DNA of 4,905 bases from a virus (lineage: Duplodnaviria > Heunggongvirae > Uroviricota > Caudoviricetes). A program made the position numbers and the translations under genes. The stretch lies in the IMG/VR virus record IMGVR_UViG_2724679172_000008. The stretch is one strand, 5' to 3'. The notes under the pieces were generated by a model, which saw nothing but the letters and a program-made list of their open reading frames with translations, did no database searches and had not been told where the DNA came from. The number at the start of each line of letters is the position of its first letter. Position 1 is the first letter of the stretch. Shown here one piece after another: positions 2,724-4,352 of this stretch.

Positions 2724-2956
2724 CAGTCAGTGTTTCTGGTTAACCAGCGACGCGCGCCAGCTTCAGTTTTAAACGTTTTGCTTCTGGTATACGTCATCGC
2801 GGTGAACGTACCGTCCTGGTTGGGGAACACGCCACATACCAGAGATTCGCTGTTGCCAAGATCGATAGTATCCATGCTGACCTCATTTCCCCTTAACGCC
2901 GGGGTAGCGGAACAAAAACCTGCTGCATAGTTATTAAAGTTGAACCCTGCCGTCAT
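2723..2956 (-). CDS. Small hypothetical protein, first gene after the PL-like promoter: 77 aa from ATG 2954-2956 or 50 aa from ATG 2873-2875 (MDTIDLGNSESLVCGVFPNQDGTFTAMTYTRSKTFKTEAGARRWLTRNTD)
   Basis: Both candidate starts have an upstream GAGG (9 nt and 5 nt spacers). The shorter form has the size of the small genes found next to Rac/Qin-type repressors. No family assignment is possible from sequence alone. Confidence 0.45.
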   Translation of the reverse strand: MTAGFNFNNYAAGFCSATPALRGNEVSMDTIDLGNSESLVCGVFPNQDGTFTAMTYTRSKTFKTEAGARRWLTRNTD

Positions 2957-3060
2957 GTTCTTACGCCTCGGGCTGGCTACTTAACCCCTGACCACTGCCT
3001 GGTAACTCGAAGTATTGCCCTGCATTCTGTGGGGCGGGGTGGGTTGGTATGAAAAGAAGG

Positions 3061-3101
3061 ATACCCATAGGTATTTAAAAAGTAAATACCCATGGGTAAA
3101 T
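3061..3101. promoter_or_regulatory. OL-like operator pair (ATACCCATAGGTAT at 3061-3074; ATACCCATGGGTAA at 3086-3099, core TACCCATGGGTA a perfect 12-bp palindrome) overlapping a candidate leftward promoter (minus strand -35 TTTACC, 17-bp spacer, -10 TAAATA)
   Basis: Direct reading. Both sites share the half-site ATACC/GGTAT with the sites between the repressor and cro-like genes; centre-to-centre spacing is 25 bp. They lie just downstream of the repressor stop and upstream of the leftward operon, the position of lambda OL/PL. Confidence 0.5.
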
Positions 3102-3140
3102 TTTTGCGGTGTCTTAACTGGTGACTAGTTGTTTGGTGAG

Positions 3141-3560
3141 CTATGATGCGTTTTGTGCTTTCTTTTTACGGATTTCTTCGTAGATCATATTGTAATACTG
3201 TTTTTTCTCTTCAAGAGTTTTTAATAATTTATCCGCTTCACTTTCTGGCAGTTCGTCTAAGAGATCTAAAAAAATACGTTGTCGTGGCGTTAGAACCCTT
3301 GTTTCATAACTGGAGGCTGTGTTCGTTGATGATGAAACGATACCATCCATCCATCCCCGGGGTAACCCAAAGGACTCTTCGATAATCTCCACCATATCAT
3401 CAGCGATCCGTTTTTTTCCCTTTTTCCCCTCTGGGTACAACATTCTTGATACATAAGAAGGCTCGCGCCCGATCTTTCTGGCCACGTTAACCGCTTTACC
3501 ATCGCATTTCTCATCACGAATTTTGATGAGTTGCTGTCGTCTAAATTCATATTTGTCCAT
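3141..3560 (-). CDS. Prophage repressor, DicA/RacR-family HTH protein (139 aa), no LexA-type peptidase domain
   Basis: Translation MDKYEFRRQQLIKIRDEKCDGKAVNVARKIGREPSYVSRMLYPEGKKGKKRIADDMVEIIEESFGLPRGWMDGIVSSSTNTASSYETRVLTPRQRIFLDLLDELPESEADKLLKTLEEKKQYYNMIYEEIRKKKAQNAS. N-terminal HTH (AVNVARKIGREPSYVSRM); the C-terminal segment L-P-x-LPESE-D-L resembles my recollection of DicA. It is divergent from a cro-like gene and flanked by operator repeats. There is no Shine-Dalgarno upstream of the ATG. Confidence 0.75.
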   Translation of the reverse strand: MDKYEFRRQQLIKIRDEKCDGKAVNVARKIGREPSYVSRMLYPEGKKGKKRIADDMVEIIEESFGLPRGWMDGIVSSSTNTASSYETRVLTPRQRIFLDLLDELPESEADKLLKTLEEKKQYYNMIYEEIRKKKAQNAS

Positions 3561-3636
3561 AGGTAAATAATAGATGCGATTACCGCAAGGTAAACAACCT
3601 GTGGGTATTGACTTTTGTTTACCTGTGGGTATTCTT
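3553..3636. promoter_or_regulatory. OR-like control region with three operator copies and back-to-back promoters. Operators: 3553-3566 (weak, overlaps the repressor ATG), 3595-3608 and 3619-3632 (both ATACCCACAGGT on the minus strand, 24 bp apart). Rightward promoter: -35 TTGACT 3608-3613, -10 TATTCT 3630-3635. Leftward repressor promoter: -35 TTTACC (plus 3589-3594), 16-bp spacer, -10 TATTAT (plus 3567-3572)
   Basis: Direct reading of hexamers and repeats. Operators overlap the -35 and -10 of the rightward promoter. The repressor -10 ends 6 nt before its ATG, so the predicted transcription start is at or next to the A of ATG. Confidence 0.55.
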
Positions 3637-3661
3637 TTGCTGTGTTTACTAAGGAGTAGCT

Positions 3662-3943
3662 ATGGAAGAATTAAGAATATTTCTCAATTCTCTTTCGTCA
3701 GATGAACAGCGTATGTTTGCATGCGAGTGTGGTACCAGCATCGGTTATCTAAGAAAGGCATTGAGTAAAGGTCAAGTGTTAGGGGCATCGTTATGTGTCC
3801 TTATTGAGCGAGCCAGTAATGGTGAAGTTACACGTCAGCAACTAAGGCCTTTTGATTGGATGAATATTTGGCCCGAGCTGGAAGATACCAAAACGTTAAC
3901 ACAACCACTTTCTAGGAGCTTGATTCATGAAAATCAAGCATGA
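3662..3943 (+). CDS. YdaS-like Cro/CI-type HTH regulator (93 aa)
   Basis: AGGAG 5 nt upstream of ATG 3662. The segment IERASNGEVTRQQLRPFDW fits the IE-x-TNG-x-VT-x-E-LRPD pattern I associate with YdaS/Cro-like proteins. First gene of the rightward operon divergent from the repressor; its last 17 bp overlap the next gene. Confidence 0.6.
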   Translation: MEELRIFLNSLSSDEQRMFACECGTSIGYLRKALSKGQVLGASLCVLIERASNGEVTRQQLRPFDWMNIWPELEDTKTLTQPLSRSLIHENQA

Positions 3944-4352
3944 ACACATCCGCATGGCGATGAATGCCTGGGCGCGTCCTGATGGCGAAAAAGTTCCAGC
4001 AGCTGGAATAACCCAGGCTTATTTTGAGTTGGGTATGACGTTCCCAGAACTGTATGACGACAGCCATCCGGAAGCCCTGGCTCGCAATACCCAGAAAATT
4101 TTCCGCTGGGTAGAGAAAGACACCCCTGATGCTGTTGAAAAAATGCAGGCTCTGTTACCGGCGATCGAAAAGGCGATGCCGCCTTTGCTGGTGGCCCGTA
4201 TGCGCAGCCACAGTTCTGAATATTACCGTGAGATCGTCGAACGGAGGGATCGGCTGGTGAAGGATGTCGATGATTTTGTTGCGTCAGCGGTTGTTTTGTA
4301 TGACCAGATGAATCGCGGCGGCCCGGCAGGGAATGCTGTGGTGATGCACTAA
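3927..4352 (+). CDS. YdaT-family protein (141 aa), CII-like regulator / conditionally toxic protein of Rac-type prophages
   Basis: Begins MKIKHEHI and ends VVMH, matching my recollection of the termini of E. coli Rac YdaT (MKIKHEHI ... VIVH) and of similar length; AGGAG 8 nt upstream of ATG 3927; follows the YdaS-like gene as in Rac. Confidence 0.65.
   Translation: MKIKHEHIRMAMNAWARPDGEKVPAAGITQAYFELGMTFPELYDDSHPEALARNTQKIFRWVEKDTPDAVEKMQALLPAIEKAMPPLLVARMRSHSSEYYREIVERRDRLVKDVDDFVASAVVLYDQMNRGGPAGNAVVMH

Follow-up and report, generated by a model that had tools for sequence, protein, structure and literature searches.

Which DNA sites does the repressor of a lambdoid prophage read when the protein matches no Pfam family, and how do these sites lie relative to the promoters that they would control? 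We addressed this question for IMG/VR record IMGVR_UViG_2724679172_000008, a stretch of 4,905 nt (hereafter the window) that corresponds to the immunity region of a lambdoid prophage located beside ompW in Escherichia coli. It encodes a repressor of 139 residues on the minus strand (3141-3560, ATG at 3560) and, divergently, a cro-like gene of the YdaS type (3662-3943, plus strand, 93 residues). A preceding sequence-only reading had proposed that five copies of the dyad ATACC-N4-GGTAT bracket the repressor gene as operators. Our analysis supports, with a probability of about 85%, five dyads as the operators of a lambda-type immunity switch, one of them being a site that this reading had overlooked.

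Dyads around the repressor gene and the promoters they overlap

Scanning of the whole window with the core TACC-N4-GGTA and at most one mismatch returned 7 matches against 0.97 expected, a count reached by 0 of 200 shuffles, while ATACC-N4-GGTAT with up to two mismatches gave 5 matches against 1.4 expected (2 of 200 shuffles). Five of the seven core matches lie in the two intergenic regions that flank the repressor gene. The five dyads share the consensus T-(T/A)-TACC-N4-GGTA-(A/T)-A, and across 18.7 kb of the prophage the perfect dyad matches number four, all of them confined to the immunity region. A weight matrix trained on 59 sites of other loci only, with no window site included, placed the five dyads as the top five of the 4890 positions scored (20.6, 20.5, 18.1, 16.2 and 10.1), the best background positions reaching 7.1 and 5.9. 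Matches with one mismatch in dicB (1476-1487) and in a ydaT-like gene (4101-4112) were rejected as extra operators and are regarded as coding-sequence coincidences, because phage Tritos has both of these sequences and Qin has that of dicB, although the immunity of these elements is different.

Three of the dyads, the right operators (OR), lie between the repressor and the cro-like gene. A promoter scan found in this region a rightward PR-like promoter (plus strand, 3608-3635), with a -35 TTGACT at 3608-3613, a 16-nt spacer, a -10 TATTCT at 3630-3635 and a predicted start at about 3642, which serves the cro-like gene and the genes beyond it. The scan also returned a PRM-like promoter for repressor maintenance (minus strand, 3567-3594), with a -35 TTTACC from 3594 to 3589, a 16-nt spacer and a -10 TATTAT from 3572 to 3567. 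OR1, TTACCTGTGGGTAT (3619-3632, weight-matrix score 20.5), overlaps the spacer and the -10 of PR. OR2, CAACCTGTGGGTAT (3595-3608, score 10.1), abuts the PR -35 and is degenerate in the half facing OR3. OR3, TTACCGCAAGGTAA (3580-3593, score 16.2), has a perfect core and covers the PRM -35, which lies inside it, and part of the spacer. As in a lambdoid switch, the dyads from 3580 to 3632 overlap hexamers of both promoters, namely the -35 and the -10 of PR and the -35 of PRM.

The centre of OR2 is located 41.5 bp upstream of the predicted PRM start, a position equivalent to that from which lambda CI activates PRM. From PRM, transcription is predicted to begin at the A of the repressor ATG (3560). 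With the PRM -10 ending 6 nt ahead of this ATG, a leaderless repressor mRNA is predicted; a gap of 6-7 nt is kept in enterobacterial relatives. Leaderless messages have precedents in lambda cI, where this is known, and in paaR2, where it has been demonstrated (PMC8630535).

The other two dyads, the left operators (OL), lie downstream of the repressor gene. OL1, ATACCCATAGGTAT (3061-3074), the promoter-proximal operator, is a perfect match with the third-ranking score of 18.1, and OL2, ATACCCATGGGTAA (3086-3099), ranks first with 20.6. Both overlap the hexamers of a predicted leftward PL-like promoter (minus strand, 3058-3086; -35 TTTACT from 3086 to 3081, 17-nt spacer, -10 TATCCT from 3063 to 3058, start near 3050), which were read directly from the sequence and not from the promoter scan. 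The outer ATA of OL1 is inside the -10, whereas OL2 abuts and overlaps the -35. The predicted output of this promoter comprises a DUF1391 gene, orf137, dicF, dicB and ydfD.

The OL pair could have a role added to that of operator. On the minus strand, from 3098 to 3062, the dyads and their flanks form a 16-bp RNA hairpin followed by UCCUUCUUUU, with a fold energy of -22.2 kcal/mol (z = -6.4; 0 of 200 shuffles). It is possible, though on the whole unlikely, that this structure doubles as an intrinsic terminator of the repressor transcript, halting PRM read-through into the toxic dicF/dicB operon. A terminator scan flagged it, and it is the sole candidate between the repressor stop (3141) and PL. 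Its fold energy lies beyond all 200 shuffles, but two near-identical palindromes 25 bp apart yield such a hairpin automatically. The complementarity does run past the dyads (TTTA/TAAA); nevertheless, the stem is A/U-rich, with 5 of its 16 pairs G-C, and the U-run is broken by C residues and coincides with the discriminator and start region of PL, which is A/T-rich anyway. In phage mEp043, a Serratia locus (L101) and Tritos, a classical terminator of its own separates the repressor operon from OL/PL, an element that the window lacks, although a repressor bound at OL could serve as a roadblock instead.

As regards operator function itself, the five sequences listed by the sequence-only reading all occur at their reported positions, and the OL/OR-like layout that it proposed, with two dyads at PL and three between the repressor and the cro-like gene, is well supported as a predicted arrangement. 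The 24-25 bp that it gave between adjacent sites were measured as 25 bp in OL (3061 to 3086) and 24 bp between OR2 and OR1 (3595 to 3619); OR3 and OR2 are 15 bp apart (3580 to 3595). Its view that the dicB cassette is under repressor control through a PL-like promoter also appears sound, since two dyads overlap the predicted promoter of DUF1391-dicF-dicB-ydfD, as for DicA and dicBp in Qin. Four of its operators hold (3061-3074, 3086-3099, 3595-3608 and 3619-3632) and the fifth, TTGTCCATAGGTAA (3553-3566), does not. That layout, in which OR consisted of 3553-3566, 3595-3608 and 3619-3632 and the start-codon site acted as OR3 to give negative autoregulation, is improbable. The site at 3553-3566 has a perfect GGTAAA half, ranks sixth of the 4890 positions and lies at the predicted PRM +1, where a bound protein would block transcription. 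However, its left half is TTGTC, which brings it to 3 mismatches; neither of the two motif scans returned it; and its score of 7.7 is near the background values of 7.1 and 5.9. An equivalent was found in 0 of 18 related loci, against 18 of 19 for the perfect dyad at 3580-3593, which the earlier layout skips. We therefore regard 3553-3566 as an isolated GGTAA half-site at most, between the PRM -10 and the ATG. Autoregulation is still likely, through 3580-3593 over the PRM -35.

Conservation of the dyads and the protein that would read them

The comparison covered 19 loci including the window, from at least 10 genera, all encoding the same N-terminal DNA-binding domain. Their sources are Escherichia, Dryocola, Pantoea, Atlantibacter, Izhakiella, Yersinia, Serratia, Mannheimia, Xanthomonas, Ferrovum, a Hydrogenophilaceae metagenome-assembled genome (MAG) and others. 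A scan of viral contigs yielded 80 loci whose domain is 100% identical to that of the window, and the diverse loci were obtained from a scan of genome contigs and from exact-protein look-ups. In nearly all 19 loci, dyads begin at about -73, -48 and -33 from the repressor ATG. OR1 (about 73 bp upstream of the ATG) is kept in 17 of the 19 and OR3 (about 33 bp upstream) in 18. An OL-type pair, 25-26 bp apart and overlapping a leftward promoter, is present in 16 loci, as is the OL1 equivalent, at a distance downstream that ranges from +462 in the window to +2331. This layout is independent of repressor length (136-139 or 220-242 residues) and of the intervening genes. Within the 59 sites of the other loci, the TACC core is 91-99% conserved and N4 is nearly free. 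Taken across these alignments, the conservation of the dyad is a classical phylogenetic footprint.

Analysis of individual relatives revealed the same pattern over a wide range of hosts. In mEp043 and CharmingMan, the interval from cI to cro contains three TTACC-N4-GGTAA dyads, and two ATACC-N4-GGTAA dyads lie on the far side of the cI operon. The pattern of Mannheimia 587AP2 and Xanthomonas Rb1 is as in mEp043, and the dyads recur in ten further genomes (Dryocola, Pantoea, Atlantibacter, Izhakiella, Ferrovum, the Hydrogenophilaceae MAG and others) and in three short-form loci from Yersinia, Serratia and a metagenome. Alignment of 16-19 loci also revealed a grammar shared by PL and PR, in which the -35 (TTGACx, TAGACA or TTTACx) abuts the proximal dyad and the first bases of the -10, which is TAnnnT in every case, fall within the GGTA of the distal dyad.

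The weakness of OR2 is itself conserved. In most of the 19 loci (L003-L102 and the window), the half directed toward OR3 is degenerate, with AACC/GGTT for TACC/GGTA, and OR2 and OR3 are always 15 bp apart, centre to centre. This conserved weak half suggests that occupancy of OR2 leans on OR1. It hints that cooperativity with OR1 is obligatory and, possibly, that RNA polymerase is contacted at PRM.

No perfect dyad was found in the negative controls Tritos, which has the same repressor tail and another head, Qin and Rac. Operator and DNA-binding domain thus co-vary, with dyads in the 19 loci that have this head and none in the three elements with other heads; on this comparison, the dyad tracks the N-terminal domain and not the tail. 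When the window, Qin, Tritos and Rac were aligned from the repressor to the DUF1391 gene, a shared transcribed leader, …CATACC-ACCCACCCCGCCCCACAGAAT…, was revealed, which starts at the predicted PL start (about 3046-3051). The leader of the window is near-identical to those of Tritos and Rac, and that of Qin is more diverged. Upstream of the leader, each element has its own dyad pair at equivalent positions, of the TTAGC/TTAGT type in Qin, the TAGGC type in Rac and the GTAC type in Tritos. As homology sets in at the predicted PL start, the joint at which the immunity module recombined would coincide with PL +1. By this alignment, the window adds a further immunity allele to a locus that works by a logic established for Qin.

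The repressor returns no Pfam match, even at an expectation value (E) of 10, and is labelled a hypothetical protein in RefSeq; it does match phrog_5736 ('transcriptional regulator', E 6e-70). Its architecture combines a helix-turn-helix (HTH) region of the mEp043 cI type (about residues 1-72), a disordered linker (about 73-90) and a helical tail resembling those of DicA and Tritos (about 91-139). Over residues 1-86, its identity to the mEp043 cI N-terminus is 65%. BLASTP aligned only the C-terminus with DicA (residues 89-134 versus 84-129, 33% identity over 46 residues, E 2e-7), and in this C-terminal half the 'CI repressor' of Tritos is much closer than DicA. With RacR there is no similarity, the best BLASTP segment having an E of 2.3 over 7 residues. 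Pfam found no S24 peptidase domain in the 139-residue protein, and a sequence search of the PDB returned only chance-level matches (E at least 0.078). By comparison, the cI proteins of mEp043, CharmingMan and Mannheimia 587AP2 have a C-terminal Peptidase_S24 domain (PF00717), and Tritos CI and DicA have an HTH_3 N-terminus (E 1.3e-16 for DicA).

A database search returned 317 relatives of the repressor, most of them of 221-242 residues with an S24 domain ('LexA family protein'), the short forms of 135-145 residues being a minority found in E. coli, Salmonella, Serratia and Yersinia. The N-terminal 72 or so residues, including the motif EPSYVSRMLYP, are conserved, with 65-82% identity to enterobacterial members, 45% to Mannheimia 587AP2 and 50% to Xanthomonas Rb1 (42-48% for these members in another alignment). 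Among the supposed homologues P0005, P0010, P0016 and P0019 are frameshifted or alternative-frame gene calls, and the N-terminus of such calls, MNLDDSNSSKF…, corresponds to an out-of-frame open reading frame (ORF) of the window (3290-3550); some E. coli copies may have a frameshifted repressor gene or be miscalled.

An AlphaFold2 model of the repressor (predicted local distance difference test score, 86) comprises helices at residues 3-18, 23-30, 34-40, 54-63, 92-103 and 106-138, with an HTH at 23-40 and disorder in the linker. Foldseek matched this model to XRE-type HTH repressors, the best being SPC32H Rep (E 1.3e-3, probability 1.0). The protein is best read as a natural chimera of an mEp043-type head and a DicA/Tritos-type tail, joined in the linker, which is poorly conserved in addition to being predicted disordered (window versus L002, L004 and L005). 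S24-tailed and DicA-like-tailed versions of this head coexist in Enterobacterales. The invariant EPSYVSRMLYP is the probable recognition helix.

The sequence-only reading had offered its dyad as the recognition sequence of a repressor of the DicA/RacR family. A concrete predicted sequence stands, whereas the family proved 'only a quarter right', the DicA-like tail amounting to about 46 residues and RacR being unrelated. The recognition sequence is assigned here to the mEp043-type domain and not to DicA because the N-terminus is mEp043-like and Pfam-less and because the DicA operator Oc differs. Of the features that mark the DicA family, we found the short helical C-terminus in place of S24, but neither an HTH_3 N-terminus of the XRE type, homologous to that of DicA and P22 C2 (the fold is XRE-like and the sequence family different), nor Oc-type operators, the window dyads being TTACC-N4-GGTAA. 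Sequence similarity to the RacR family was likewise absent. For the mEp043-type family, the conserved N-terminus was found; the S24 tail of the majority architecture was not, the window having the minority short form.

The divergent Cro-like protein is another candidate reader. It is 40-73% identical to the product of the divergent gene in 15 related loci, a comparison that leaves out L096, where the wrong frame had been extracted, and L098, where the ORF is unrelated. The dyads might be read only by this YdaS-type protein, or by a host factor, the 139-residue protein then not being an operator-binding repressor. Cro homologues do accompany the dyads in nearly all loci, so that co-occurrence is non-discriminating, and the 139-residue protein has neither a Pfam family nor a functional name in RefSeq. 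Yet its N-terminus shares homology with the end of S24-type cI/LexA-family repressors that binds DNA and models as an HTH, and the dyads occupy activator and repressor positions at its own promoter as well as sites at PL. The presence of the same sites in Xanthomonas, Mannheimia and Ferrovum hosts argues against a host factor, and in lambda, Qin and CP-933P the operators are shared by the repressor and a Cro-type protein. Exclusive reading by Cro or a host factor is for these reasons very improbable. A reading of the repeats as a product of chance or of base composition in A/T-rich intergenic DNA could appeal to the 2 of 200 shuffles for ATACC-N4-GGTAT; it is effectively refuted by the 0 of 200 for the core, by positions kept in 19 loci while N4 varies and by controls without the motif.

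The proposed switch and its setting

The genes that the switch would govern lie on both sides of the repressor. To the left, all on the minus strand, are the DUF1391 (ydfA-like) gene (2723-2956), orf137 (2310-2723, 137 residues, phrog_1363), the DicF small RNA (1684-1735, Rfam 77 bits), dicB (1312-1500), a DUF1482/ydfD-like gene (1127-1315) and, leftmost beyond it, a recE-like exonuclease gene. To the right, on the plus strand, the cro-like gene is followed by a YdaT-type gene (3927-4352) and a replication-initiator-like gene. At least 80% of the stretch 2950-3700 was found in 822 of 5426 complete E. coli genomes.

Within the PL operon, between the DUF1391 gene and dicF and roughly where Rac has sieB, an ORF of 92 residues runs on the plus strand (2072-2350). 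It is annotated in RefSeq, belongs to phrog_18692 (unknown function) and is convergent with orf137 on the minus strand, which it overlaps by 41 bp. A perfect YdaT operator, TTGATTCATGAAAATCAA (TTGATT-N6-AATCAA), lies at 3920-3937, with a chance expectation of 0.04. This motif is the published high-affinity operator (OM) of CP-933P YdaT (PMC9986795). In the window it falls where the ydaS-like gene ends and covers the start codon of the ydaT-like gene (3927), in the same relative place as in CP-933P. The site implies a conserved control point for a CII-like YdaT, and possibly a PRE-type promoter for the repressor. In the full prophage (locus L001), the segment 14452-15047 includes hokD, which Qin also carries.

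From this layout, we infer how the switch would operate. A dimer of the 139-residue repressor would bind each dyad through its N-terminal HTH. On OR1 and OL1 it would occlude the -10, and on OR2 and OL2 the -35. Occupation of OR1 and OR2 would cover the PR -10 and abut its -35, turning off the cro-like, ydaT-like and replication genes; occupation of OL1 and OL2 would shut PL and with it the DUF1391-orf137-dicF-dicB-ydfD operon and the recE-like exonuclease gene. The repressor bound at OR2 would stimulate its own leaderless transcript, and at high repressor level OR3, which overlaps the PRM -35, would be filled and PRM turned off. The Cro-like protein probably uses the same dyads in the reverse order of preference. 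Given a DicA-like tail without S24, induction would probably proceed through an antirepressor or a Cro-driven bistable or stochastic flip and not through RecA-stimulated cleavage.

Several observations weigh against this lambda-type switch. First, the PL hexamers are weak, matching 8 of 12 consensus positions, which is below the threshold of the promoter scan and explains why the scan missed PL; and only two OL sites are present. Secondly, OR2 and OR3 are 15 bp apart where lambda has 23, and the rules of lambda cooperativity may not transfer. Thirdly, the strong hairpin and U-run formed by the OL dyads may mean that their sequence is partly shaped by another function. Fourthly, Cro co-varies with the repressor domain, and the comparison of loci cannot by itself tell which of the two proteins reads the dyad. 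Finally, no rem-like antirepressor was found at the hokD-adjacent position within the 18.7 kb of the prophage covered, the 90-residue ORF there (L001, 14775-15047) being unlike Rem, and the open-access papers searched do not mention the operator motif or the recognition-helix sequence.

As an operator set, the five dyads are of the lambda type, a well-known kind that leaves a specialist unsurprised. What appears to be undescribed, in the open-access literature searched, is the recognition sequence, the family of DNA-binding domains without Pfam entry or structure, and the swap of head and tail in a common E. coli prophage. We tentatively suggest, at somewhat less than even odds, that TTACC-N4-GGTAA is the undescribed operator code of a widespread CI domain family, without Pfam entry or structure, that extends from Enterobacterales to Pasteurellaceae, Xanthomonas and Betaproteobacteria. 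The same suggestion includes a domain swap to a DicA-type tail in about 15% of complete E. coli genomes and a switch logic possibly unlike that of lambda, with a weak OR2, a 15-bp OR2-OR3 distance and OL as terminator.

For a repressor that RefSeq calls hypothetical and that is carried by these 822 genomes, the analysis provides a precise predicted recognition sequence and a promoter map. The repressor lies immediately upstream of dicF and dicB, and release of these genes from repression stops cell division and changes the sensitivity to phages. Knowledge of the operator would make it possible to predict which strains cross-repress one another's prophages (immunity groups) and to search for host genes captured by the repressor. 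The domain swap is also a clean case of modular repressor evolution, one head being combined with an S24 or a DicA-like tail, and the exchange of tails is expected to alter the sensing of DNA damage by the prophage while leaving its DNA target unchanged.

Comparison with known systems

As in lambda, the repressor and cro genes are divergent, PRM and PR have three operators between them, and the dyad recurs at the leftward promoter. The distances of 24-25 bp between OR1 and OR2 and between OL1 and OL2, the centring of OR2 about 42 bp upstream of PRM, the overlap of the third site with PRM and the leaderless repressor mRNA (here predicted) are also common to both. In lambda, the operator is 17 bp long and OR2 and OR3 are 23 bp apart, whereas the window has operators of 14 bp (5-N4-5), a 15-bp OR2-OR3 distance and two OL sites. 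Its repressor lacks S24 and its DNA-binding domain has no detectable sequence relation to CI.

With DicA of Qin, a cryptic prophage of K-12, the window shares a short non-cleavable repressor with a homologous C-terminal segment of about 46 residues, a downstream DUF1391 gene-dicF-dicB-ydfD operon with a related leader, and the 5-N4-5 dyad geometry. In Qin, repression of dicBp by DicA amounts to 22-fold and its de-repression by the antirepressor Rem to 165-fold, and RecA is not required for induction (PMC10448788). The experimentally supported DicA operator Oc is TTGTTAGTCATAACTAACAA, TTAGT-CATA-ACTAA (PMC3441716), so that the half-site is TTAGT there and TTACC here. The two systems also differ in the head of the repressor, HTH_3 in DicA and Pfam-less in the window, in the Cro protein, DicC there and YdaS-type here, and in the rem homologue, which was not seen here at the hokD-adjacent position.

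The PaaR2/YdaS/YdaT system of CP-933P, a cryptic prophage of E. coli O157:H7, has in common with the window a YdaS-type Cro, a YdaT-type CII analogue with its operator at the same place, a leaderless repressor message (predicted here) and operators common to PR and PL (PMC8630535). Its operators are 18-bp palindromes with the half-site GTTTAGTAA (PMC8630535) and not TACC-N4-GGTA, and the paaA2-parE2 toxin-antitoxin pair is absent behind the repressor of the window. That DicA with dicBp, Rem and Oc, and PaaR2 with YdaS, follow this logic in systems characterised by experiment speaks for the proposed switch. The protein whose structure best matches the AlphaFold2 model, Rep of Salmonella phage SPC32H (PDB 5d4z and, bound to the antirepressor Ant, 5d50), is likewise a short non-cleavable repressor. 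However, identity is only 15-22%, the TM-score of about 0.45 comes mostly from the HTH domain, and no common operator is known.

The mEp043 cI group of S24 'LexA family' repressors has an N-terminal domain homologous to that of the window (65% identity over 86 residues), together with the same operators at the same offsets and a Cro of the same family. We found no publication on mEp043 operators in the open-access literature searched, and the papers that name mEp043 treat other matters. The difference lies at the other end of the protein, where members of this group have a Peptidase_S24 tail and are presumably RecA-inducible, while the repressor of the window has a tail of the DicA/Tritos type.

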